A program made the translations under genes and the position numbers. DNA of 64,000 nucleotides from an uncultured Acidobacteriota bacterium (lineage in GTDB: Bacteria; Acidobacteriota; Vicinamibacteria; Vicinamibacterales; CAVVIG01): assembly GCA_963789965.1 (NCBI GenBank), contig CAWBMO010000007.1, positions 69,661 through 133,660 on the forward strand. The letters run 5' to 3'. The notes below the pieces were generated by a model, which was given only the letters and a program-made list of their open reading frames with translations, searched no databases and was not told the origin of the DNA. This document shows, piece by piece, positions 10,284 to 50,373 of the stretch (its first letter is position 1; each line of letters begins with the position of its first letter).

Positions 10284-11159
10284 GTGATTGACGCCTTTCT
10301 GGACCACCTGCGCGTCGAGCGGCGGCTGGCCGCGCACACCCTCGAAAGTTACGGGCGGGACCTGGCTGCGCTCGCAGAATACGCAGCGGGGCTCGGCGTG
10401 GCGCCAGACGCGCTCGACCGGCGGGCGCTCGAACGATTCGTCAGGCGGCAGATCAGCCGGGGCCTCTCACCGCGCTCCGTGGCGCGATCGGTCGCCGCGA
10501 TTCGTGGATATTACCGGTTCCTCGTCCTCGACCGCCGTCTGCCGAGCAGTCCCGCAGACGACCTGCAGCCGCCGCGCGCGTGGCCGGCGCTGCCAAAATT
10601 CCTGTCGCTCGAGGAGGTCGATGCGCTTATTGCACAGCCGGATGTCGCGACACCACTCGGCCTCCGCGATCGCGCCATGATCGAGCTGCTGTACGCGACG
10701 GGGATGCGGGTGTCCGAGCTCGTCGGCGTCCGGACCGCGGATCTCCATCTTCGCGAGCGCTATCTGACCTGCGTCGGCAAGGGCAACAAAGAGCGGCTGG
10801 TTCCGACCGGCGATCAGGCGATCACGTGGATCGAGCGCTACCAGAAGACCGCGCGCCCGAGGCTCCTCAAAGGGCGCGCGTCAACGCGGCTGTTCTTGAA
10901 CGTCCGGGGCAAGCCCATGAGCCGCGTCGGCTTCTGGAAGCTTCTGAAACGGTACGGCCACCGCGCCAACCTGCCGCGCTCGCTCAGCCCGCATGTGGTC
11001 CGACATTCGTTTGCGACGCATCTGCTCGAGCGCGGCGCCGATCTGCGGGCGATCCAGATGATGCTAGGCCACACGGACCTGTCGACGACGCAAATCTACA
11101 CGCACGTGCTCGAAGCGCGTCTGCGTACCGTCTACGATCGATTTCATCCGCGGCCGTGA
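10284..11159 (+). CDS. xerD: Site-specific tyrosine recombinase XerD (XerC/XerD family)
   Basis: 291 aa. N-terminal [23 protein letters not shown]. Catalytic ARG..HxxR..Y region ([37 protein letters not shown]). XerC versus XerD cannot be resolved by eye. Confidence 0.85.
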
Positions 11160-14228: not shown

Positions 14229-16592
14229 TTACGTTCTCACTGTAAGAATCAGATACGCCGCGGCAGCCGCGAACAGGATGTTCGGCGTCCAGGCAGCGAG
14301 CACCGGCGAGAGCAGGCCGCCGGCTCCAATCGCCGCACACACACTCAACATCAGCCAGTACGTGATGGCGAGCACGATGCCAGCGCCGATGCCGTACATC
14401 GCACCGCGGCGACCGGTGGTCGCCGCGAACGGCACGGCAAGGAGCGTCATGACGACTGTCACGAACGGAAACGCTACCTTCCGCTGCAACGCCACCAAGT
14501 ACGGCATCACGTTGTAGCCACCGACCCGCAGCTGCGCCACGTATTCCTTGAGCTGCCCGTACGTCATCAGCGCCGCGTCGGGCTCGTCGGTCTTGAAGTA
14601 GCTGGGAGACTCGAGCATCAGTGCCTGCTCGGCAAACGGCGTATACCTGACGACGGTCTTCGTGACCTTGCCCTGCGTGATGTCCGAGAACTCCCGGTTC
14701 CACCCGGTGAATCCCGTCCATCCCGCCGCCACGTCGTCGGCGCCGGCGCGGGTCAGCGCCACGTGGCTCGCGCGCGTGATCGACTGCAAATCCCAACGAG
14801 CCGGATGGAGGTGATAGACGACGAACTGCTGGAACTCGTTCTTGTTCGCGTCGAACAGGTCGTAGTGATAGATGTCGCCGTTCAGGGCCACCATCCACCG
14901 CCGGTCCAGCGCCCCAAAGCTCGCCGGTGGCAGATCCCGGATGAGGCGATTCAACCGGTCGGCCTCCCGGTTCGAGTACGCGATCACGCGCTCCTGCAAG
15001 GCGAACAGCACCGCGCTCGCCGCGACGCCAAAGAGGAGCAGCGGCGCCACGGCGCGATACAGACTGATGCCACAGGCACGCATGACCACGAGCTCGCTGT
15101 TCTTGGTCATGAGTCCGACGGTCACCAGGGTGGCCACGAGAGCCGACATCGGAATGATGTAGTAGATGTACTGCGGCGTCTGGAACACGAAATACCGCAG
15201 CATCATCGACGTCGTCGCCGAGCCGCGGAACAGCTTGTCGGCCAGATCCATGAAGGTCGAGATGTAGAAGATGCCAAGCAATCCAAAGAGGCCAAGAAAA
15301 AAGACCCGCAGGTACTGACCCGACACGTACAAGTCCAGCAGGGGAGGGCGGGGGAGATTCAGCTGCGGCACGCGAAGGACCAGCACGGCCCGTTTTCTGG
15401 CTGTCGCGACACCACCCGCAGCCTCGCCTGACGGAGCGGCCTCCTTCCCGGCGCCACGCCAGAAGGCGGGGATGCTGATTCGTATCGGCTGGTCGGCCGA
15501 ACGCGCGCGCCAGAGAAGAAGCGCGACACCGGCAGCGCCGAAGATCAGATTCGGAACCCACGCCCCCAGGCCCGCCGGAATCTGGCCGGTGAAGGCGGCC
15601 GCGCGCACGGTCCACAACACGACGTAGTAGAGAAAAATCACGCCGAAACCCAGCACAAAGCTCGCGAACCGCCCGTCTTTCCGGTTGCTGGCCCCCAGCC
15701 CGAGACCGATCAGGGCGAGGACGATGCACGCCACCGGGATCGCGAACTTCTGCTGGATCTCATACCGCTGCACGTACCCTGGATCGTGCGTCGCAGCGCC
15801 GGCCGCGATACTCGCCTTCAGTTCCGCAATGCTCATTTCTCTCGACGTCTTCGACGGCTTGATGTTCGGAAAGACCGTGTTCGGATCCAGTTGGATGAGG
15901 ACGCGCTCGTAGTCGGCGCCTTCATACTCGTCGGGTTTCGCGGTTGACGTCGTGTGTCGCGTCCCGCCGGTGAGCTCCAACGAGACCGATTGTTTCTCGC
16001 GGTCTACCAGCAGGCCGCCGGCTTTCGCGAAATACACGGTCGTCTGATTCGGCTGGGAGGTGTCGGCGAGAAACACGTCGCGCCAGCCGCCCGGCACCAC
16101 GTCCCGGGCGTAGATGGTGCGATTCGGAAACTCGCTGTAGAACACCCGCGGCTTGACGTTGCTCTCCGCGCGGCTCGCGATCACGTTGAAGGTGATTTCG
16201 ACAAATGTCCGATTCGCGTCAGGCAGTGCGACAATGATCTGGTGCGCCGTGGCCGCGGTCGCCACCAGGGCGACGAACGCGATGGGACGGATCAGACGAA
16301 ACGGGCTGACACCGCACGCCTGCAGCGCCACGAACTCACGATCGGCAGACAGACGGCCGAAGCCGATCAGAATCCCGAGCAGCACCGACATGGGTATGGT
16401 CAGGCTCAGCGACGAAGGCAGGAGCAGCACAAGGGCATGGAGGAATGTCGACCACGCGATACCCTTGACGATCAGCGGCTCCGCGTACCGGAGGATCGTC
16501 GGAATGGTGACGACGAACGTCAGCAGGATCAGGGACAACCCCATCGGCAGGAGCAGTTCCCGGATCACGTAGCGATCGACGGTTCGAAACAT
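14229..16592 (-). CDS. lptFG: Fused LptF-LptG lipopolysaccharide export permease
   Basis: Two YjgP/YjgQ permease halves in one ORF. First half: MFRTVDRYVIRELL..ADREFVALQACGVS. Second half: LLDLYVSGQYLRVFF..KNSELVVMRACGIS. ATG 16592 is preferred over ORF start 16637. Confidence 0.8.
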   Translation of the reverse strand: MFRTVDRYVIRELLLPMGLSLILLTFVVTIPTILRYAEPLIVKGIAWSTFLHALVLLLPSSLSLTIPMSVLLGILIGFGRLSADREFVALQACGVSPFRLIRPIAFVALVATAATAHQIIVALPDANRTFVEITFNVIASRAESNVKPRVFYSEFPNRTIYARDVVPGGWRDVFLADTSQPNQTTVYFAKAGGLLVDREKQSVSLELTGGTRHTTSTAKPDEYEGADYERVLIQLDPNTVFPNIKPSKTSREMSIAELKASIAAGAATHDPGYVQRYEIQQKFAIPVACIVLALIGLGLGASNRKDGRFASFVLGFGVIFLYYVVLWTVRAAAFTGQIPAGLGAWVPNLIFGAAGVALLLWRARSADQPIRISIPAFWRGAGKEAAPSGEAAGGVATARKRAVLVLRVPQLNLPRPPLLDLYVSGQYLRVFFLGLFGLLGIFYISTFMDLADKLFRGSATTSMMLRYFVFQTPQYIYYIIPMSALVATLVTVGLMTKNSELVVMRACGISLYRAVAPLLLFGVAASAVLFALQERVIAYSNREADRLNRLIRDLPPASFGALDRRWMVALNGDIYHYDLFDANKNEFQQFVVYHLHPARWDLQSITRASHVALTRAGADDVAAGWTGFTGWNREFSDITQGKVTKTVVRYTPFAEQALMLESPSYFKTDEPDAALMTYGQLKEYVAQLRVGGYNVMPYLVALQRKVAFPFVTVVMTLLAVPFAATTGRRGAMYGIGAGIVLAITYWLMLSVCAAIGAGGLLSPVLAAWTPNILFAAAAAYLILTVRT

Positions 16593-16639
16593 ATGGGCTG
16601 GAGGGGCGTCCAGCCCGTCCTGCCGAGAGAGTACCACCG

Positions 16640-18883
16640 ATGACCAAGGTCGCGATCCTCTGGCACATGCACCAGCCGTTTTACCAGGACCTGGCCACCG
16701 GGGAGCACATCCTGCCGTGGGTCCGGCTGCATGCCCTCAAGGACTACTACGGCATGGTCGCGCTCTTGAGGGAGTTTCCCGACGTGAAGGTGACGTTCAA
16801 CCTGGTGCCCTCGCTGCTCGTGCAGCTCGAGGCATTTGCCGCCGGTCGTGCGCGCGACCGGTATCTGGAGCTGAGCCTCAAGCCGGCCGACGATCTGCAA
16901 CCTTCTGACGTCGAATTCATCCTCGACCACTTCTTCCACGCGCAACGCCAGCGCATGATCGATCCGTATCCCAGGTACTCCGAGCTCCTGGCGCGACGCG
17001 GCGGGTCACTGCCGACCGAGGCCGACAAGCGCGCGGCCGCCCGCCGCTTCACGGTCGACGACCTCCGCGATCTTCAGGTCTGGCACAAGCTCGTCTGGAT
17101 GGATCCGTTCTATCTCGAGGGTGATTCGCGGACCCGAAGCCTCGTTGAAAAGGGGAGTCACTACACCGAAGAGGACAAGGCGCTCCTGGGACAGCTCGAG
17201 CTGGAGCTCCTGAACAGGGTCGTCCCTGAGTATCGCGAGGCTGCCGGCCGGGGCCAGATTGAGATTTCGACCTCGCCCTTCTACCACCCGATTCTGCCGC
17301 TCCTCTGCGATACCAGCGTGTACCTGCGGACCCACCCCGACTCTTCGATGCCTCGTCAACGCTTTGTGCATCCCGAGGATGCCATCGAACAACTCGAACG
17401 GGCCGCAGCCTGCCACGAGCGGTTGTTCGGCCGGCGGCCTACCGGACTGTGGCCGTCCGAAGGTTCGGTATCGGATGCCATGGTTCCTCTCGTCGCCGAC
17501 GCCGGCTTCACCTGGATGGCGACCGACGAGTTGATTCTGGCCCGCACCCTTGAGGTCGCACTGGCACGCGACAGCCACGGGAACCTCGAGGAACCGGAGC
17601 GGCTCTACACACCCTACGCCCTCAAGATCGGTGGAGCGGCGCTGACCTGCGTGTTTCGCGATCACACCCTGTCCGATCTCATCGGATTTTCCTACGCCGG
17701 CTGGAATTCCGAGGCCGCCGCCGACGACTTCGTCAGACGCCTGGCCGAAGCCGGCCGCCGCGCCAGCAATCGCCCTGGCAGTGAAGGCGGGGTAGAGCCG
17801 CTCATCCCGATCATCCTGGACGGGGAGAACGCATGGGAGCACTTCGAACATGGAGGCCGGCCGTTTCTGCGTGCGCTCTATCGCCGGCTGTCAACCCACC
17901 CGGACTTGCGCACCGTCACCATGGCCGAGGCGTGTGCCGCACCCCGTCGCGAGCTGACCGGCATCTTTCCGGGATCCTGGATCGACGCCAACTTCTATAT
18001 CTGGATCGGCCACGCCGACGACCAGCGCGGCTGGAGCCAGCTGGCTGACGCGCGCCAGGCGCTCGAGGCGGCGACGCGCGAGGGCAGACTTGACCCGGCG
18101 GCGCTTGCGGCGGCCCGTGAAGAGGTGTTCATCGCCGAAGGCAGCGACTGGTTCTGGTGGTACGGCGACGATCACTCATCAGATCAGGATCTCGAATTCG
18201 ATGATCTGTTCCGGCGCCATCTGCGGAACGTGTACCGGCTGCTGCAGAAGCCTGTCCCGGACGAACTGTTCGTCAGCAACATCTCGAGCCTCGGCGCGCC
18301 GCCAGCCCAGACCGCACCGGTGACACTGCTGACCCCGACGCTCGACGGAGAGGACACGAGCTACTTCGAATGGCTCGGCGCCGGCGCGCTCGAAATCCGC
18401 GACGATACCTATCGAGGCGGCGCCATGCACCAGGCGAGCCGGCGAAGTTCGATCCTGACGCTCGTGCGGTTCGGCTTCGGGCGCACGCCGGAGCGGCTTT
18501 TCGTCCGGCTGGATAGCGACCGCCCGATGGCCGACCTGCTGGCCGATGGCTATACCTTCTCGCTGAAGTTCCTGGAGCCGGCCGGTGTCCGGTTCGAGGT
18601 GCGGACAGCACACGGCGAGGTCGTCGGAACCTTCTGGGATCGGGCCCAAACGGGCGACCGCTGGATCGAACGAGCAACACGAGGCGCAGCGGTCGCTGCC
18701 GGAACGATCCTCGAGGCGGCGCTGCCGCTTGCCGAACTGGCTTCATCGGCCGGCGCGCGTGTGGCCTTCTTCATCGAAGTGTCGGCGCCGAATCAGACCG
18801 AGGGCGAGACGCATCCCGAGCACCATCCGCTCGAAGCGACCGTACCCGACGAGCAGTTCGAAGCGCGTCACTGGACGGCATAA
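16640..18883 (+). CDS. Glycoside hydrolase family 57 alpha-glucan enzyme
   Basis: 747 aa. GH57 N-terminal signature (ILWHMHQPFYQD..LPWVRLHALKDYY) plus EGSDWFWWYGDD. Confidence 0.85.
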   Translation: MTKVAILWHMHQPFYQDLATGEHILPWVRLHALKDYYGMVALLREFPDVKVTFNLVPSLLVQLEAFAAGRARDRYLELSLKPADDLQPSDVEFILDHFFHAQRQRMIDPYPRYSELLARRGGSLPTEADKRAAARRFTVDDLRDLQVWHKLVWMDPFYLEGDSRTRSLVEKGSHYTEEDKALLGQLELELLNRVVPEYREAAGRGQIEISTSPFYHPILPLLCDTSVYLRTHPDSSMPRQRFVHPEDAIEQLERAAACHERLFGRRPTGLWPSEGSVSDAMVPLVADAGFTWMATDELILARTLEVALARDSHGNLEEPERLYTPYALKIGGAALTCVFRDHTLSDLIGFSYAGWNSEAAADDFVRRLAEAGRRASNRPGSEGGVEPLIPIILDGENAWEHFEHGGRPFLRALYRRLSTHPDLRTVTMAEACAAPRRELTGIFPGSWIDANFYIWIGHADDQRGWSQLADARQALEAATREGRLDPAALAAAREEVFIAEGSDWFWWYGDDHSSDQDLEFDDLFRRHLRNVYRLLQKPVPDELFVSNISSLGAPPAQTAPVTLLTPTLDGEDTSYFEWLGAGALEIRDDTYRGGAMHQASRRSSILTLVRFGFGRTPERLFVRLDSDRPMADLLADGYTFSLKFLEPAGVRFEVRTAHGEVVGTFWDRAQTGDRWIERATRGAAVAAGTILEAALPLAELASSAGARVAFFIEVSAPNQTEGETHPEHHPLEATVPDEQFEARHWTA

Positions 18884-18947
18884 GGAACGGGGAGCGGCAC
18901 GCCTGCAATAACCCTCCACAAAGGGGTATCTCTTAGCGATATCTCTA

Positions 18948-18975
18948 GAGTCTGATAATGGATGTTATGTTAACT
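18948..18975 (+). other. dif: Candidate dif site (XerC/XerD chromosome dimer resolution site)
   Basis: GAGTCTGATAA-TGGATG-TTATGTTAACT. The right arm matches the E. coli dif XerD arm TTATGTTAAAT at 10/11 positions. The inner left arm has ATAA. 6-bp spacer. Lies in an AT-rich island in non-coding DNA, at a + to - gene-orientation switch. Confidence 0.6.
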
Positions 18976-19199
18976 ACAGCGCCTAACGCCCGGCCTCCCC
19001 GAGCGTCGCCTCGTGTCAATCGAGCGCCGTTTCCTCTTGGCTGATTGTGTCCGGGCCGGTTTACGCGGAGCCTTGATCCCCGGTGCGCTGCTGGCTCCTT
19101 CGTACCTGCCCCTGTTGCTTGTTCACGTCGGTCGGACCGTTCGAACCCAAGCGCGACCCAAGACCGGGACCTACCAGCGCTTTCACAATGCCGTAGTAC

Positions 19200-19255
19200 G
19201 TAGTGTCCGGCTTTAGCCGGACCTGTAGGCGGTCCGCCTGAAGGCAGACACTACC
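19200..19255. repeat. REP-like double hairpin (K type), second copy
   Basis: GTAGTGTCCGGCTTTAGCCGGACC-TGTAGGC-GGTCCGCCTGAAGGCAGACACTAC. The two modules are mutually complementary. Confidence 0.8.
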
Positions 19256-19282
19256 GGCATTGCGAAAACACTCTAGAGAGCA

Positions 19283-19460
19283 GTTTTCAGTTCGGCGTAG
19301 CCGTCAAGTCCTTGGTCCTTTGTCCCTGCGTTCTTGGTCCGTCCGTGGCCCGTGGTCCTTGGTGCGCATGCCACGATGGACCACGAACGAGGGACCCAGG
19401 ACGGACCATGGACCAAGCACCATGGACCAGGGACTGGCGTACGACACGGAACCGAAAAAC
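19283..19460. repeat. Tandem-heptamer palindrome, family A, with extended outer stem
   Basis: Core is 19308-19435 (GTCCTTGGTCC... / ...GGACCAGGGAC). The flanks GTTTTCAGTTCGGCGTAGCCGTCAA and TGGCGTACGACACGGAACCGAAAAAC also pair. Confidence 0.8.
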
Positions 19461-19696
19461 GCTCTAGCGGAGCTTCGTTGCAGAGCCCTTCGTTGCGGAG
19501 TTCTTTGGTCGGAGAATGGTTTCGGAGGCCGAAGTTCGGAGTCGCTGGTCGGTTGCCTGGTCCCTGAACGGGTTCGCTGCCTCGAACTTCACTGGCCGCA
19601 GACACCCTCAACCGGCGCGGCCATTCCCGCCACTCTGTTCTCGCGGTCCCACCATCACGGCTGGGTTCAGGTACTCACCAGTCTGTCCGCCGCCTT

Positions 19697-19915
19697 TTAG
19701 ACAGACGAGGTCGGCGGAGGCGCCAGCCGACTGAACACGACCAGCAGCGCCCCGACGCCGAGCCAGACGAGTCCCTGGGCGGTACCCGGCGGGCGGCCCG
19801 GATCCACCATCGCCAGCCCCATCGTCGCAGAACCGAGCAGCAGGAGGCCGACCCCGGCGACCAGCAATGTCTGTTTCATCGCGGCCTTCAGCGCCTGAAC
19901 GACATCGTCCGTCAT
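19697..19915 (-). CDS. Small membrane protein (2 predicted TM helices), unknown function
   Basis: 72 aa from ATG 19915 (GAGG upstream). Hydrophobic LLVAGVGLLLLGSATMGLAMV and LVWLGVGALLVVF. The upstream part of ORF 19697..20110 is translated repeat. Confidence 0.35.
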   Translation of the reverse strand: MTDDVVQALKAAMKQTLLVAGVGLLLLGSATMGLAMVDPGRPPGTAQGLVWLGVGALLVVFSRLAPPPTSSV

Positions 19916-19984
19916 CGTGATCGCCTCGCCGGCGCCACTGGCGGCTGTCCAGGATTGGCGCGCCGGTGTCGAATGTTGACGCGC

Positions 19985-20147
19985 ACTAGTGTCGCGTCTC
20001 CGAAGTTCGTTGTCGCACCGAGGGCGGCGAGGCGCCCGGCTGGCCAGGCGCGAGGAGCTCGCATATCGAGAATATGCGAGCGACGAGCAACGCCGCCAGC
20101 CGGGATGCATCGCCGGCCGAATGCAAACGAACTTCGGAGACGCGACA

Positions 20148-20152
<5 letters not shown>
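19985..20152. repeat. MITE-like element: perfect 27-bp terminal inverted repeats around a 114-bp core
   Basis: ACTAGTGTCGCGTCTCCGAAGTTCGTT (19985-20011) is the exact reverse complement of 20126-20152. There is an inner 10-bp palindrome GCTCGCATAT..ATATGCGAGC (20057-20081). The right TIR covers the parB stop. Confidence 0.8.
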
Positions 20153-20961
<809 letters not shown>

Positions 20962-20969
<8 letters not shown>

Positions 20970-21717
20970 GGTCGATTACCTCCTCGCACAGGCTGTCGTA
21001 CTCGGTCGCGCCGGTCGAATCGGGCGCAAACGTGAAAATGGATTCCTTGTAGGCCGGGCTCTCTTCAAGCCGCACGCTCTTCGTGATCACGGTCTTGAAG
21101 ACCTTCCCGCCGAACACCTTCTGGATCTGCGTCCGGATATCCCGCGCGAGCGCGGTCCGCTTGTCGTGCATCGTGATGACGACGCCGAGGATCCGCAGCG
21201 CCGGGTTGGGCCGCGCGCGCACCTTTTCGATGGTTTCGAGCAGGTCGTCGGTCCCTTCGAGCGCGAAATACGACGACTGGATCGGAATCAGCAGGTGTGT
21301 CGCGGCCACCAGCGCGTTGACCGTCAGCAGCCCCAACGTCGGCGGGCAGTCGATGACAATGTGCGGGTACTCTCGCCGAATCGGCTCGAGCTTGTCCTTC
21401 AGGCGGAAATGGGCATCCATCTCCCCCACCAGTTTGGCCTCCATCTTGGCGAGCGCGATCCGCGACGGCGCAATAAACAGATTCGGCACCGGCGTCGGCA
21501 TGATGACGTCCTTCATGGCGATGACCGGGTCGACGATGGCATCGTAGACGCTCTTGGTGACCTGCGGCATGTCGAGAAACGACATCGTGCTGTTGGACTG
21601 CGGATCGAGATCGAGAAGCAGCGTCCGTTTGCCGCGCAGCGCAAGGGCGGCGGCCAGATTGATCGCGGTCGTGGTCTTACCCACGCCGCCTTTCTGGTTG
21701 GCGATGGCGACGATCAT
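20962..21717 (-). CDS. parA: ParA-family partition ATPase
   Basis: Deviant Walker A (IAIANQKGGVGKTTTAINLA) begins right after ATG 21717. The 91 upstream codons of ORF ..21990 are translated repeat B2. 8-nt overlap with parB. Confidence 0.9.
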
Positions 21718-21762
21718 CAGTGGGGGCGGACGGGGAATTGTAACAGGAAAGAGTACGGCGAA

Positions 21763-27876: not shown

Positions 27877-27935
27877 CCCTTGTGGCTACAGTCGTGAGAG
27901 TCGATAAATCGTGAGGGTCGCTAAAGTGGTTAAAC

Positions 27936-29340
27936 ATGGTTGACACAGCCCGATCGACACCTCGCGCAATTCCCGTGATGGCCGCCGTCGCCGTAGCGAC
28001 CTTCGTGACGCTGGGTGTGCGCGCGCAGCAGCCGCCGCCAGCCCTTCCGGCCGCACCACAACAACCCAGCGAGATCACGACGACGATCACCGGCGAAGGC
28101 GGAGCGGCCCCGCGCCTGGCGGTTCCGGAATTCATCGCCTTGACGCGCGACGCGGAAACGCAGGCCATTGCCCGGGCGATTACCCAGGTGTTGTTCGACG
28201 ACCTGACATTCGAACGCGAGTTCGCCCTCGTGCCACGCGACATCTACGCCACGATCCCCGCCGCGACGACCCTCGCCGACGTGCCTTTCGATCGCTGGCG
28301 CGAGTTGAACGCCGACGGCCTCGTGATCGGCACAGTCCAGAAGCTGCCCACCGGGATCAGGATTGAAGTGCGCCTGTTCGACATGCGCAGCCGGCAACCG
28401 ATTCCCCCGTCTGCTTTTGGCAAGGAATACAGCGGATCCGCCGCGAACCCTCGCTTGTACGCCCACACGATGGCCGACGAGATGCACCAGTCGCAGCGCG
28501 CGCTGCGAGGCGTCGCGCGCACGAAGCTGGTGTTCGACTCCGATCGAGATGCCGAACGGATGACCGGAACGATCGAGAGCCGATCCGTCAAGGAGATCTA
28601 CATGGCGGATTACGACGGCGAGAATCAACGTCGTCTCACGGTCCAGAAGTCGCTGAACATTACGCCGACCTGGTCCCCCGACGCACGCTCGATTGCCTAC
28701 TCGTCATACCGCCGCGGGCAGCCGAACATCTTCATCTCGAACATCTATCAGGGGACGCTCGAGGAATTGACGAAGAGCGCCGGCAACAACTTCACACCGT
28801 CGTGGTCGCCCGACGGCACCCGGTTGTGCTTTGCCTCAACACGCGACGGCAACTCGGAGCTGTATGTCGTGAACCGCGACGGCTCGAACCTTCGTCGGCT
28901 GACGAACAATCCCGGGTAGCGACATCACCCCGACGTGGTCGCCGTCGGGAACGCAGATCGCGTTCACGTCCGACCGGACGGGCACGCCGCAGATCTACAT
29001 CGTCGGCGCCGACGGTGTGGGCCTGCAGAAGCTGACGTCCGAATCGTACGCCGATCGGGCGACGTGGTCGCCGGCGCCCTTCAACGAGATCGCGTACGCC
29101 GCGCGGACCGGGCCGGGCAACGACATCAAGGTCATGATCCTGGCGACACGCGAAGTGCGGCAGCTGACCTTTGGCGAAGGCACGAACGAGAGCCCGTCGT
29201 GGGCGCCCAACGGACGCCACCTGGCGTTCACGTCGACGCGCTCGGGCAAGACGCAGATCTTCACGATGGCACGCGACGGGAAGAACCTGAAACAGATCAC
29301 TCGAACCGGAAACAACTACCAGCCCGACTGGTCGAGATGA
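27936..29340 (+). pseudogene. tolB: TolB, interrupted by one +1 frameshift at the CCCGGG run (28911-28919); probably intact in vivo
   Basis: ORF 27936..28919 carries the signal peptide, the TolB N-domain and WD-like blades, and ends ..RLTNNPG*. The +1 frame continues seamlessly as SDITPTWSPSGTQIAFTSDRTG.. to 29340. Confidence 0.85.
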
Positions 29341-44046: not shown

Positions 44047-45018
44047 TCAGCTACCTTCGTCGACGAAATCGATACCGAGCCGCCCCATGTTTCGAAATTT
44101 GTCGTAGCGCAGCTTCAGCCTCGTGTCCCGATCGAGCGCGCTCACCTCCGTCAGCGCCTGCTCGAGAACGCGATCGATGAGCCTGGCGGCGGCCGCCGGA
44201 TCGGTATGAGCGCCGCCGATCGGTTCGGGCACGATTTCGTCGATGATGTCAGCCTTCAGCAGATCGGGCGCCGTGATCTTGAGCGCCGCCGCCGCTTCCA
44301 CCTTCTTCGCGGGATCACGCCACAGAATGGCCGCGCAGCCTTCGGGCGGGATCACGCTGTAGATCGCGTACTCCTGCATGAGCACACGATCGCCGACCGC
44401 AATGCCGAGCGCACCGCCGCTGCCGCCCTCGCCGCTGACGATGACGATGATCGGCGTGTCCAGGAGCATCATGTCGCGCAGGTTCACGGCAATGGCTTCG
44501 GCGACGCCCCGCTCCTCGGATTCGATCCCGGGATAAGCGGCCGGCGTATCGACAAACACGAGGATCGGCCGACCGAACTTTTCCGCGAGCCGCATCGCTC
44601 GAAGCGCCTTGCGGTACCCTTCGGGCCGCGCATACCCGAAATTCCTGAAGATCTTGTCCTTCGTGTCGCCGCCCTTGACGTGCCCGACGAGCAGCACCGG
44701 CTGGCCCTTGTAGTCAGCGAACCCGGTCATGATCGCGTGATCGTCGGCGAACCGACGGTCTCCGTGAATCTCGACAAAGTTGGTGAACAGGCGCTCGATG
44801 ACGTCTTCGAGGCCGGGACGGTTGGGATGCCGCGCGACCAGCACGCGCTGCCACGGGGTGAGCGATCGATACAGGTCGCCGCGTGTGGTCTCGAGCCGGC
44901 GCTTCAGCGTATCGATCTGTCGCTCGCGGGCATCGGTGCGCGGGAGCACCGTGAGCGCCTCGATCTCTTTCAAGAGAACGGCGATCGGCTCTTCGAAGTC
45001 CAGGGTCTCTAACGCCAT
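44047..45018 (-). CDS. accA: Acetyl-CoA carboxylase carboxyltransferase subunit alpha
   Basis: 323 aa. LDFEEPI..L, ARHPNRP and GEGGSGGALG motifs. The start overlaps the dnaE stop (TAATG). Confidence 0.9.
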   Translation of the reverse strand: MALETLDFEEPIAVLLKEIEALTVLPRTDARERQIDTLKRRLETTRGDLYRSLTPWQRVLVARHPNRPGLEDVIERLFTNFVEIHGDRRFADDHAIMTGFADYKGQPVLLVGHVKGGDTKDKIFRNFGYARPEGYRKALRAMRLAEKFGRPILVFVDTPAAYPGIESEERGVAEAIAVNLRDMMLLDTPIIVIVSGEGGSGGALGIAVGDRVLMQEYAIYSVIPPEGCAAILWRDPAKKVEAAAALKITAPDLLKADIIDEIVPEPIGGAHTDPAAAARLIDRVLEQALTEVSALDRDTRLKLRYDKFRNMGRLGIDFVDEGS

Positions 45019-48000
45019 TACCGCAATTCCACCGATCCTGCACCCGCGACCTGCTCGACTTCCGCGATGAGGGCCGGCGAGGGCCGCACGCGGATCTGCG
45101 CGCTCACATCCACGCGCACGCGCAGATGACCGGCCGTCTCGACTTCGAACGACACTTTCCGATCGCCCCGGTGTCGCGAGACGATGTCGAGCAGTGCCTG
45201 AAAGATACCATTGGCGGGCGCCTTGAGCCGGATCTTGACCTCGCGCGTCACACGCTCGCGGACGCTGTCGAGTGGCGCGATCTCCGACGCCAGCACCCGC
45301 ACCGATTCATCGTCTCGTTCCAGCTTCCCGCGGACGAGCACGAGCGTGCCGCTCTCAATCAATCCCGCGCTGCGCTGATAGGTGTCGGGAAAGGCAATCA
45401 CCTCGACGCCGCCTTGTGCGTCCTCAATGGTGAAGACGGCCATGCGGTCGCCCTTGCGCGTCTTGAGCAGGCGGCAGGCCGCGATGATGCCGCCGACGCT
45501 CGTGTCAGGCTCGATCGGTTTCGGCCCGCCGGGGCCCCAGGCGTCGCTACTCCGCGGCGCAGAGGGGCCCCGGAGTGGAAGACGCTCCGTTGACTGGCCG
45601 TTCCGCGAGCTCGCCCGTCGCCCGCGCCCCAAACTCTTTCAGCACCGATGCGTAGCGATCGACCGGGTGTCCGCTCCAATAGAGGCCGAGCGTTTCTTTT
45701 TCGAAGGTGAGCTGTTCGGTTTCGGACCAGGGCGTGGCCTCCGGCAGAGGGAGCGCCCTTAAGGGCGTCCCCTGAGCGGACGCCGACGCGCCGGCTCCGA
45801 ACGCACCGAACAGTTGGGCCTGCCCCTCGTTCTTGTCACGCTGCATCCGCAGCGCCGTGCTCGCAGGCCGCATCAATCGCCGCCATCAACCGCGGCCGCA
45901 AACGCCAGCGTGGGCAGGGACTCGTAGGCGGCCTGACCCCGGACGATCGAATCGAACGCGCCGGCCTTCGCGAGGCTCTCGAAGACGCGCTTGTTCACGA
46001 GCCGCAGGTCGAGATCTTCGCAGAGCCCGAGCAGCGACGTGATGCGGCCCTGCTTCTTCCGGACCTCGAGCAGCGACTCGACGGCTCCCTCGCCGACGTT
46101 CTTGATCGCGGTCAGGCCGAAACGGACGCCTGTGCCCGGCTCGACGGTGAATCGCAGCTGGCTCTCGTTGATGTCCGGCGGCAGCACCGGAATGCCGCGC
46201 TCGCGGCACTCGCCGAGGTACAGCGCCAGCTTGTCGGTATTCTGCGCTTCAATGGTCAGGAGCGAAGCGGCGAAGTACCACGGGTAGTTCGCTTTCAGAT
46301 ATGCCGTCTGATACGCCAGGAACGCGTATGCGGTGGAGTGCGCCTTGGGAAATCCGTACCCGGCGAAGTGCTCCATCAAATCGAAGATGGGGCCGGCTTT
46401 CTTTTCGGGAATCTTGTTCTTCTTCGCGCCCTCGACAAACTTGCCGCGCTGTTTCGCCATCACCTCGGGATTCTTTTTCCCCATCGCCTTGCGGAGGATG
46501 TCCGCTTCCCCGAGCGTGAACCCGCCGAGCTCCCGGGCTATCCGCATCACCTGTTCCTGATACGCGATGACGCCGTAGGTCTCTCGAAGGATCGGTTCGA
46601 GCTGCGGCAGCTCGTACTTGATGTCGACCTTCCCGCCTTTGCGCGCGATGAAGTCGTCCACCATGCCGCTGCGCAGCGGACCGGGCCGGTACAGCGCATT
46701 CAGCGCAATGAGGTCCTCGAGCGTCTGCGGCTTCGTCTTGCGGAGGATGTCCCGCATGCCACTGCTCTCGAACTGGAAGATGCCGTAGGTCTGGCCGTCC
46801 TGAAATACCTGGTACGTCTTCGGGTCGTCGAGCGGGAGGTTGCCGATATCGAGCGTCTCGCCGGTCGTCCGATTGATCTCCTTCACGCAGTCGTCGATGA
46901 GGGTCAGCGTGCTGAGCCCGAGAAAGTCCATCTTCAGCAGGCCGACACGCTCGATGTCCTTCATCGACCACTGGGTGACGATTTCGTCGTGCGCCCCCCG
47001 GTACAGCGGCGCGTATTCCGTGATGGCCTGCGGTGCGATCACGACGCCGGCGGCGTGGACCGAGGCGTGCCGCGTCATGCCCTCGAGGCGCCTGCCGACG
47101 TTCAGAAGCTCTTTGACCTTCGGGTCATCCTGCTCCATCTGGCGGAGCGTTTCGTTCTCCTCGAGCGCCTTATCGAGGGTCATGTCGAGCGCAGCCGGAA
47201 TCAGCTTGGCGACCTTGTCGACGTCGGCGAACGGCATCTCGAGCACCCGTCCGACGTCGCGCACCACCGCCTTGGCCTTCATCGTCCCGAACGTGATGAT
47301 TTGGGCGACGTTCTGGCGGCCATATTTGCGGGTCACGTAGTCGATGACCTCGCCGCGCCGCCGCTCGCAGAAATCGATATCGATGTCGGGCATCGACACG
47401 CGCTCCGGGTTGAGGAAGCGCTCGAAGATCAAGTTGAACTCGAGTGGATCCACATCCGTGATGCGCAGACAGTAGGCAACGAGGCTGCCTGCCGCGGAGC
47501 CACGGCCCGGCCCCACGGGAATGCCCTGTTCGCGTGCGTAGCGGATGAAGTCCCACACGATCAGGAAGTACCCCGGGTACTTCATCTGCTTGATCATGTC
47601 GATCTCGTACGACAGCCGACGTTCGTACTCGTCGATGGTCTGTCTGAGGGCGCCGGTATTCGCGAGCTGCTTGAGCCGTGTCAGCCGGTCGCTGAAGCCT
47701 TCGCGCACGACGTGCTCGAAGTAGTCGTCGAGCGTGTATGGCGCAGGCACATCGAAGTTCGGCAGGAAGCTCTCGCCCTCGGCGAGGCGCACGTTGCAAC
47801 GCTCCGCGATCCGAACCGTATTCGCGAGGGCGTCCGGATAGTCCTTGAAGGCGTCCGCCATCTGCTCGGCCGTCTTCAGAAAGAAATTCTGGCTTTCGTA
47901 CCGCATCCGCTTCGGATCGCTGTACGCCTTGCCGGTGCCAATGCAGAGGAGGATGTCGTGCGGGTGCGCGTCGGTTTCGCGGACGTAGTGGACGTCGTTC

Positions 48001-48611
48001 GTGCAGATGAGCGGCAGATTGAGATCTCGCGCGATCCTCGGCAGGCCGCTGTTGACGACGCGCTGATCCTCGATGCCATGCCACTGCATCTCGAGGAAGA
48101 AGTTGCCGGGGCCCAGGATGTCCCGGTAGGCGGCTGCCGCTTGTACGGCCTTCCGCTCCTGCTGGTGCGAGAGGCCTTCCGCCACCTCGCCCTTCAAACA
48201 GCTGCTCAATCCGATCAGTCCTTTGGAGTGCGCGGCCAACAGCTCTTTGTCGATGCGGGGCTTGTAGTAGAACCCCTCCGTGTACCCGGCCGAGACGAGT
48301 TTGATCAGATTGTGGTAGCCCTCGTTGGTCTCCGCCAGCAGAACCAGATGGTTGGCGGTTTCGCCCGGATTCCCGCTCTTGGTGAGCCGGCTCCCTGGCG
48401 CGACGTAAACCTCGCATCCGAGAATCGGCTTCACGCCATGCTGCCGCGCGTGATCGTGAAACATGACCGAGGAGAACAGATTGCCGTGCTCGGTGACCGC
48501 AATCGCCGGCATCTTCAATTTCTCTGCCTGGTCGAGCAGCTCCTCGATGCGGCACGCGCCGTCAAGGAGGGAAAACTCAGTGTGTAGGTGAAGATGGACG
48601 AAGTCGGTCAC
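45018..48611 (-). pseudogene. dnaE: DNA polymerase III alpha subunit DnaE, C-terminal region broken by three +1 frameshifts
   Basis: GTG 48611 gives TDFVHLHLHTEFSLLDG (PHP domain). The ORF is intact to 45873. Continuation is RPRLMAAIDAACEHG (+1), then LRMQRDKNEGQAQLFG..EKETLGLYWSGHP (+2), then the OB-fold tail GGIIAACRLLKTRKGDRMAVFTIED (+3) to 45018. Shifts are near 45897-45902, 45850-45858 and 45562-45573 (GGGGCCCC run). Confidence 0.9.
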
Positions 48612-48615
48612 AGCT

Positions 48616-48791
48616 AGTCCTTGGTCCTTTGGTCTTGGTCCTTCGTCCGTCCTTGGTCTTTGGTCCTTCGTCCGTCCTTGATCATTCGTCCGTCCCTGGT
48701 CATTCGTGCTCGGTCCGTGCCAAGCGCCAAGGCCCAAGGACAACCAAGGACTAAGGACGGACCAAGAACCAAGGACCAAGAACCAAGGACC
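48616..48791. repeat. Tandem-heptamer palindrome, family A (largest copy)
   Basis: ~100-nt left arm with internal GGTCCTTCGTCCGTCCTTG duplications, ~70-nt right arm (CCAAGGAC/TAAGGAC units). Fills the guaA-dnaE spacer. Confidence 0.9.
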
Positions 48792-48795
48792 ATCG

Positions 48796-50373
48796 TCATT
48801 CCCACTCTATCGTGGACGGCGGCTTCGAACTGATGTCATACACAACCCGGTTGATCCCGCGGACTTCGTTGACGATGCGTGAGGAGATGCGAGCAAGCAG
48901 ATCGTGCGGCAGCCGCGCCCAGTCGGCGGTCATGCCATCACGACTTTCGACGGCTCGAATCGCGACGGTGTACTCATAGGTCCGCTCGTCGCCCATCACG
49001 CCGACGCTCTGCACCGGCAGCAGCACCGCGAAGCTTTGCCAGAGACGGGTATACCAGCCCTCCCGCCGCACCTCTTCCGTCACCACCGCATCGGCGCGGC
49101 GCAACAGGTTCAGTCGATCGGGCGTGACCTCGCCCAGGATCCGTACCGCCAGGCCGGGTCCGGGAAACGGCTGCCGGACAACGAACTCCTCCTCGAGCCC
49201 GAGCTTGCGTCCGACCTCGCGCACTTCATCTTTGAACAGCTCACGCAGCGGCTCGACGAGTTTCATCCGCATGCGTTCGGGAAGGCCGCCGACGTTGTGA
49301 TGGCTCTTGATCAGGGAGGACTGCCCCACGATCGCGACCGATTCGATCACGTCCGGATAGAGCGTGCCCTGGGCGAGAAAATCGACCTGACCGAGCTTCG
49401 CCGCCTCGGCATCGAAGACATCGATGAATGTCCCGCCGATGATTTTGCGCTTCCGTTCGGGATCGACCACTCCCGCCAGGCGATCGAGAAACAGCGATGA
49501 CGCGTCGACGAACACCAGCGGCAGCTTGAGCCGCTCGTAGCGTTTGCGGATCTGCGCCGCCTCGTCCAGGCGAAGGACGCCGTTATCCACGAAGATGCAC
49601 GTCAGCTTGTCGCCGACGGCACGATGAATGATGAGCGCGGCGACTGTTGAATCGACCCCGCCGCTCAGGGCGCAGACCACGCGGCCGGCGCCGACCTGCG
49701 CGCGAATCTTCGCGGTAGCCTCTTCGACAAACGACGCCATGGTCCAGTCGCCGGTGCAACCGCAGATGCCGTACGCAAAGTTTCGCAGAATATCGAGGCC
49801 GCGTTCGGTGTGCGCCACTTCAGGATGAAAGAGCAGCGCATACAGGCCGCGATCGGCGTTGGCCATCGCCGCGACCGGCGCGTTCGCACTGGTCGCGACG
49901 ACGTCGAATCCGGCGGGCGCCGCAGCCACGAAGTCGCCGTGACTGGCCCATACGCGAATCTCGTCCGGGATGTCGGTAAACAGGACGGCAGGCCCTGAAG
50001 GGCCTGCCCTACCGACGCCTCCAGCTGCGACGGGCACCCTGATCGTGACTGTCGCGTGGCCGAACTCGCGCTGCGGTGCGGGCGCCACCCGCCCCCCGAG
50101 CGTGTGTGCCATCAACTGCATGCCGTAGCAGATACCGAGCACGGGCGTGCCCATGTCGAACACCGCCGGATCGCAGCGGGGCGCGCCGTCATCGGATACG
50201 CTTTTTGGTCCGCCCGACAAGATCACGCCGACCGGCGCGCGACTGCGGATCTTGTCCGCCGATGTGTCGGGCGGCCAGATCTCGGAGTACACCGAAAGCT
50301 CGCGAAGGCGTCGGGCGATCAGTTGTGTGTATTGCGACCCGAAATCCAGAACGATGATCGTCTGATGACTCAC
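48796..50373 (-). CDS. guaA: GMP synthase (glutamine-hydrolysing)
   Basis: GTG 50373 gives [21 protein letters not shown]. GATase domain (GICYGMQ), ATP-PPase motif (SGGVDSTV), C-terminal PPSTIEWE. Confidence 0.9.

Follow-up and report, generated by a model that had tools for sequence, protein, structure and literature searches.

Does the 28-bp sequence that lies between a GH57 glycoside hydrolase gene and parB in this DNA act as a dif site for the XerC/XerD recombinases, and does it mark the place where replication ends? An initial annotation had described a dif-like site at a switch in gene orientation and had called the place a probable replication terminus. We followed up both parts of that description in the window (the whole stretch of DNA analysed, 64,000 nucleotides or 64 kb) and in related loci from other genomes and metagenomes. 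The dif-like part stands. The part that concerns the orientation switch and the terminus does not, as nothing in the window supports it.

The 28-mer is very probably a functional Xer/dif site and the dif of its lineage. This call follows from its match to published dif sequences, its class-wide conservation with the pattern of arms and spacer, its single copy in the window and the presence of xerD nearby. As an explanation for the locus as a whole, we think it probable that the 28-mer is the dif of a chromosome from the Vicinamibacterales (Acidobacteriota). A dif site is in itself ordinary and expected. The only unusual aspects here are its class-wide linkage to parAB and a phased module resembling DnaA boxes.

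The 28-bp site and its match to known dif sequences

The 28-mer is laid out as 11 + 6 + 11, with partial inverted symmetry of the arms (inner ATAA...TTAT). The sequence, the arms, the inner ATAA and the 6-bp spacer had all been read exactly in the initial annotation, and the AT-rich island of about 60 bp that it placed around the site is borne out by the base composition (Table 1). Even with as many as 3 mismatches allowed, the window contains the site only once; shuffled sequences gave 0 matches. The core pattern ATAA-N6-TTATGTTAANT is exact at the site, and the number expected by chance is 0.11 even with 3 mismatches. The runner-up among dif-like 28-mers of the window lies far from the site and has 8 mismatches over 21 scored positions, and the window holds no second XerD arm with fewer than 2 mismatches.

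Table 1. Features of the site and its surroundings, in window coordinates.
Feature	Position	Strand	Basis or remark
xerD, tyrosine recombinase	10284..11159	+	Pfam Phage_integrase and SAM-like; NCBIfam TIGR02225
GH57 glycoside hydrolase, on the XerC-arm side	16640..18883	+	Pfam PF03065; stop 65 bp before the site
Degenerate module copy, TGCAAT-AACCC-TCCACA	18904..18920	+	shifted 1 nt relative to the register of relatives
AT-rich island around the site	18920..18979	.	GC 0.33-0.38 (40-bp windows) vs ~0.645 locally
dif-type Xer recombination site, 28 bp	18948..18975	+	read directly from the sequence
Putative XerC arm (left), GAGTCTGATAA	18948-18958	+	
6-bp central region, TGGATG	18959-18964	+	
Putative XerD arm (right), TTATGTTAACT	18965-18975	+	
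137-codon ORF, the sole ORF in the gap	19697-20110	-	no family match
parB, 3' end facing the XerD arm	20148..20969	-	Pfam ParB_N, HTH_ParB; NCBIfam TIGR00180
parA, start codon uncertain	20962..21720	-	Pfam AAA_31, CbiA, ParA

The dif sites of E. coli and B. subtilis are recombined by XerC/XerD (CodV/RipX in B. subtilis) under the control of FtsK (SpoIIIE/SftA). From these two systems we infer how the present site would work. XerC would bind the left arm, GAGTCTGATAA, and XerD the right arm, TTATGTTAACT, with strand exchange at the 6-bp central region between them. After homologous recombination has produced a dimer of the two sister chromosomes, septal FtsK would pair the two dif copies and activate XerD, upon which exchange would begin and the dimer would be separated.

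The chromosomal dif reads GGTGCGCATAA-TGTATA-TTATGTTAAAT in E. coli and ACTTCCTAGAA-TATATA-TTATGTAAACT in B. subtilis (Kono et al. 2011, PMC3025954). The XerD arms of both were given correctly in the initial annotation, as the supplement of Kono et al. 2011 shows. Checked against that supplement, the XerD arm of the window matches TTATGTTAAAT and TTATGTAAACT at 10/11 positions each, as had been claimed. Sites have also been predicted for the Acidobacteria K. versatilis (ATGTCCGATAACAGATATTATGTTAACT) and S. usitatus (ACTTCCGATAACGAATATTATGTCAACT), and for T. yellowstonii of the Nitrospirae (ATGTCTGATAATGTATATTATGTTAAAT) (PMC3025954). Whole-site identity is 23/28 with T. yellowstonii, 22/28 with K. 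versatilis, and 20/28 with both S. usitatus and E. coli. The XerD arm is identical to that of the predicted K. versatilis dif (11/11), and the XerC arm matches that predicted for A. capsulatum at 9/11 positions.

The window site and the Acidobacteria and Nitrospirae predictions of Kono et al. have the left-arm core GTC(T/C)GATAA in common. Position 6 of the XerC arm alternates between T and C among the relatives of the window, as it does in the Koribacter and Solibacter predictions. The predicted sites belong to other classes and phyla, with no Vicinamibacteria genome among them, and they are computational predictions likewise.

What the site shares with the dif of E. coli and of B. subtilis is the length of 28 bp, the 11-bp arms and 6-bp spacer, the inner ATAA/TTAT and nearly all of the XerD arm (10/11). 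Like them it is non-coding, single-copy in the window, accompanied by a xerD gene, and found in either orientation relative to its flanks. It differs from them in its lineage-specific outer XerC arm (GAGTCTG), in being flanked by parAB, and in the extra conserved module that stands beside the XerC arm in most relatives. Judged by sequence, the 28-mer has every feature that would be looked for in a chromosomal dif.

Neighboring genes and conservation across Vicinamibacteria

A xerD gene had been noted about 8 kb from the site, and the gene that scores as xerD indeed ends 7.8 kb away from it. Its product reaches 355.8 bits with the XerD model (cut-off 329.6) and 307 with the XerC model (cut-off 335), and the gene order from xerD to the site is kept in relatives. 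Genes for XerC and FtsK were not found in the 64-kb window. The gap of about 1.26 kb between convergent genes, also described before, measures 1264 bp from the GH57 stop at 18883 to the parB stop at 20148, of which 1172 bp separate the site from the 3' end of parB. The best homologues of the GH57 protein, which are 70-88% identical, were found in soil metagenomes and in MAGs that bear the name Vicinamibacterales (Acidobacteriota). For parA, the NCBIfam ParA-type matches all fall below their curated cut-offs, and the protein has 251 aa in relatives.

Three samples of loci were used to follow the site through related genomes. For the first, GH57 homologues (70-79% identity) led to the loci, and the DNA motif played no part in choosing them. 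In each of these loci the 28-mer comes directly after GH57 and is 26-28/28 identical, with differences confined to the spacer and the last base. Locus L005 has it at 28/28 although its GH57 is only 70% identical. The flanking intergenic DNA differs among these loci and the gap ranges from 172 to 1840 bp. They have the gene order SIS-xerD-metK-PHP-lptFG-GH57-[gap]-parB-parA-BFN-miaB-recN-tolQ in common.

The second sample consisted of metagenomic loci obtained via ParB, again unbiased by the motif. Of the independently sampled parB loci in which the DNA continues for 1 kb or more beyond the 3' end of parB, 29/30 carry the site. In 47 of the 48 ParB-sampled sites the XerD arm begins with the same 10 bases. 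In the same 48 sites, positions 1-3 and 6 of the XerC arm vary (position 6 being T or C), and the spacer is variable. Conservation is highest in the XerD arm, lower in the XerC arm and lowest in the central region, all within non-coding DNA that is otherwise unconserved. Such a gradation from arms to spacer is the pattern one would expect of a dif site.

For the third sample, one genome per species was scanned with TCTGATAAT-N5-TTATGTTAAC. At least 119 genome stretches matched, with a single match in each. The matches listed are mostly from Vicinamibacterales, and about 80 of the at least 119 listed have the Vicinamibacteria gene order. In the loci that share this synteny, identity goes down to 64% for ParB and to 38% for LptFG. 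Other phyla are also present among the matches listed (Desulfobacterales, Bacillaceae, Chlamydiae, Nitrospirota and a Priestia plasmid), as expected for a universal Xer substrate; the surroundings are unrelated there. Six contigs with the Vicinamibacteria gene order (L014, L034, L080, L061, L085 and L099) belong to MAGs named Bifidobacterium, Bifidobacteriaceae, Acidimicrobiia, Woeseiaceae or Polyangia. The two of them that were checked, L014 and L080, have a GC content of 67-68%, and these off-taxon contigs are probably cases of mis-binning.

The site is inverted relative to its flanks in 6/69 loci and in 6/48 ParB-sampled loci. Relatives with an inverted site (about 10%) are L001 (12313-12340), L025, L027, L052, L096, L144, L156, L157, L172, L189 and L190. 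Since the site occurs in either orientation, a self-contained recombination site fits better than a promoter or operator.

The distance from the site to parB ranges from 20 to 1782 bp across relatives, and it is 28 bp in locus L127, whose ParB is 93% identical. The DNA on the XerD-arm side (18976-20147 in the window) has the look of a variable insertion zone. An attachment junction of an IMEX (integrated mobile element exploiting Xer), in which a second and often degenerate dif-like site would flank the inserted DNA, was considered and rejected: the window has neither such a second site nor an IMEX junction, the best other 28-mer being the one with 8/21 mismatches. No tRNA, tmRNA or Rfam family was found near the site, and Rfam was also blank over the window and 16 loci. 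One terminator-like site was found in the gap, which is no excess over shuffles.

The gap has some structure of its own. A perfect 27-nt inverted repeat (19985-20011 and 20126-20152, with 114 nt between its arms) overlaps the parB stop codon with its right arm. The window has no other copy of this repeat, which may be a hairpin or what is left of a MITE-like element. Two long imperfect hairpins with arms of 18-34 nt lie at 19176-19272 and 19308-19420 and have no Rfam match.

A tandem module beside the XerC arm

The information profile of the flanks extends conservation to about -45 on the XerC-arm side and falls to about 0 beyond +30 on the other side. In most relatives the XerC-arm side carries a module of two direct repeats with an 11-bp period, T[CG]CRCR-N5-T[CG][CA]ACAG, followed by GGGC or GGCC, a T-run, GGC and ATTTC. 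The distance from the end of the repeats to the site is exactly 25 nt. In about 1 Mb of loci the module has 33 exact matches, all of them at this one position and on the same strand.

The repeats resemble DnaA boxes. The second reads (T/C)(C/T)ATCCACA and is the perfect box TTATCCACA in one locus, and in a few other loci it is the first repeat that reads TTATCCACA instead. In 86/123 unique loci the second repeat is within 3 mismatches of the DnaA box. Tandem pairs that pass the box rule of a published origin search (a DnaA box with up to 2 mismatches and an optional tandem partner with up to 4) occur in 28/123 loci, the rate at random positions being 1 in 4100. In the window the two repeats differ from the DnaA box at 3 and 6 positions. 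The module is missing or degenerate in about one quarter of loci, the window included, while the 28-mer is intact. It is inverted together with the site in L156 and L189 and absent in the other loci with an inverted site. At the RNA level, RNAalifold gives no structure beyond the inner palindrome of dif, with no compensatory pairs, and there is no Rfam match to the module.

Examples of relatives that carry the module, with repeats of the form TCCRCA-N5-TCCACAG, are L101 (4040-4174), L199 and L201. A further motif, yTAGGGC-N4-6-(G)CC, lies about 30-45 nt upstream of the module (for example in L015, L074 and L101), whether or not GH57 is upstream.

Some plasmid Xer sites have additional sequences on one side: cer of ColE1 and psi of pSC101 have XerC-side accessory sequences that bind PepA with ArgR or ArcA. 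Like these plasmid sites, the present one has a conserved and probably protein-binding module at a fixed distance on the XerC-arm side, and the 11-bp period of its direct repeats is like that of response-regulator or DnaA sites. Unlike the accessory sequences of cer and psi, the module spans about 45-90 bp instead of about 180 bp, stands at a chromosomal locus, has repeats that are DnaA-box-like and not ArgR- or ArcA-box-like, and is dispensable in some lineages. The module may assist Xer recombination as an accessory sequence, and would then share its XerC-side placement with those of cer and psi. It is also a candidate DnaA-binding site at the last-replicated locus.

One could go further and regard dif in Vicinamibacteria as a composite cis element, made up of the site, tandem repeats 25 nt from the XerC arm, the adjoining parAB and a xerD gene within 8 kb. 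We find this doubtful. If it were true, and if DnaA or another repeat-binding protein occupied the module, the initiator would be tied to dimer resolution or to the termination of replication. Another possibility is that a site that titrates DnaA at the last-replicated locus would act as a cell-cycle timer. The composite reading would also place partition genes at the terminus and not at the origin.

Terminus, origin or another kind of Xer target

The proposal of a terminus had been built on gene orientation, and the strand fractions cited for it hold: 72% of coding DNA to the left of the site is on the + strand, and 66% of coding DNA to the right is on the - strand. The switch as such does not support a terminus. 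It is 1 of 12 such switches in the window, between 13 alternating strand blocks, and its contrast ranks 7th among gene boundaries. Gene order is common to all relatives by descent, and the strand switch in relatives is therefore not independent evidence.

GC skew, which had been suggested as a check, gives no sign of a terminus within the window. To the left and to the right of the site alike it is negative, and the cumulative curve declines steadily through 18.9 kb without an extremum there. Fourfold-degenerate sites give no flip either. At these sites a slight excess of G is seen in minus-strand genes on either side (left +0.10, right +0.03), the values for plus-strand genes are close to zero left and right, and if anything the pattern speaks against a flip. 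In 43 relatives, left-flank skew is positive in 37 and right-flank skew negative in 28, which is the direction predicted for a terminus, measured on the same orthologous genes. Gene-specific effects dominate the per-gene skew in relatives (for example MetK -0.15, ParA +0.14). For the three Acidobacteria that Kono et al. included, the GC-skew index is only 0.03-0.08 (PMC3025954), which makes skew a weak test in this phylum. The KOPS sequence GGGNAGGG occurs 3 times in 64 kb, always on the + strand and with 2/3 pointing away from the site, too few to judge, and de novo polarity of skewed k-mers in the window is confounded by gene strand.

The genes that immediately adjoin the site are a point against a terminus, as parA and parB are classical origin-linked genes (PMC2099444). 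A search of the window for the parS 16-bp palindrome TGTTNCACGTGAAACA gave 0 matches with as many as 3 mismatches allowed. Over related loci totalling about 1 Mb the palindrome has 1 match at up to 2 mismatches, on a non-Vicinamibacteria contig, and no conserved long palindrome was found at the related loci. Other origin genes (dnaA, dnaN, gidA, gidB, rpmH, rnpA and yidC) do not occur in the 64 kb. With no canonical parS and no other origin gene in 64 kb, the position of parAB need not mark an origin. In S. usitatus, the predicted dif and the GC-skew shift point are 0.47% apart (PMC3025954). We take a location in the replication terminus region to be somewhat the likelier reading, and our only ground for it is the position of dif in other bacteria.

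A different view accepts the 28-mer as a genuine Xer target and denies that it is the terminus dif. It would be kept beside parAB for another purpose, for example as a docking site for integrative elements or as a resolution site beside partition genes, as on plasmids and chromids, and the true terminus would lie elsewhere. The tight linkage to parAB across the class would suit this, as would the lack of a skew flip in the window, the varying length of DNA between site and parB (20 to 1782 bp), a hint of insertions next to the site, and the presence of the same site family on viral contigs and a plasmid. Against it, chromosomal housekeeping genes are densely packed in the window (dnaE, metK, rpoN, mutS, recJ, lpt and tol-pal), and a complete chromosome, OY970174.1 (5,350,129 bp), carries the locus, with the site at about 1,750,881-1,750,904. 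Nor does any insert in the window have a second dif-like site at its flank, and the species-scan matches listed have one match per genome. We regard a role away from the terminus as unlikely. The viral contigs that carry this site family are many and span a wide GC range. Mobile elements exploit Xer, and viral carriage of dif-type sites is as expected.

The module invites the thought that the region is a replication origin, or part of one, and that its likeness to dif is secondary. In the basal unwinding system of origins, tandem DnaA boxes are followed by a GC-rich spacer, DnaA-trios and AT-rich DNA (PMC8287927). The arrangement here recalls that system: two DnaA-box-like 9-mers with an 11-bp period, 2 bp apart, are followed by a GGGC/GGCC spacer and point to the AT-rich 28-mer, the supposed unwinding element, at a fixed distance, with parAB adjacent. 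It departs from the system in several ways. By eye, no run of at least 3 DnaA-trios, (.A.){3,}, was seen within 16 bp of the boxes (rule from PMC8287927), and in 83 loci the 1 kb to the left and to the right contains no further DnaA boxes. The flanking genes are convergent and not divergent, the module is lost in some genomes that keep the 28-mer, and the arms of the 28-mer are identical in phyla with unrelated surroundings. With no box cluster or trios seen at these loci and no origin genes in the window, oriC was rejected, and we give an origin very little credence. Still less probable is that the 28-mer is AT-rich by mere chance or serves a neighboring gene as operator or promoter. The GATAAT of the left arm does resemble a -10 hexamer and the island is intergenic. 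A consensus scan of 18700-20300, however, found no promoter-like site, and both adjacent genes end at the site and do not start there. Chance or a promoter would also have to account for the retention of 26-28/28 positions amid intergenic DNA that cannot otherwise be aligned, whichever way the site faces and however far it lies from either neighbor.

A chromosomal dif thus remains our preferred reading. A literature search on dif or parS in Vicinamibacteria found nothing specific, and as far as our searches show this is the first dif documented for the class, an abundant and almost uncultured group of soil bacteria. The well-supported sequence for Vicinamibacteria is (G/A)(A/G)GTC(T/C)GATAAT-N5-TTATGTTAAC(T/C). 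It could be used as a terminus marker for orienting and checking long-read MAG assemblies, and to spot elements integrated at dif. If real, the linkage to parAB and the phased module would be something new on chromosome resolution outside the model phyla.

Several minor observations were made along the way. One viral contig, IMGVR_UViG_3300025570_000015 (L206 and L269), carries two dif-type sites, and many small viral contigs carry one, which makes them candidate Xer-exploiting elements. LptF and LptG are fused in the window into a protein of about 800 aa (14229-16637, - strand) with two LptF_LptG Pfam stretches. The fused lptFG is also present in relatives (786-798 aa), and its start is 2 bp from the divergent GH57 start. 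Two other genes appear to be split: tolB into ORFs 27915-28919 and 28903-29340, where relatives have a single tolB of 452-485 aa, and dnaE into ORFs 45018-45638 and 45873-48806, with the C-terminal OB fold on an ORF of its own. Both splits may be frameshifts or assembly indel errors.
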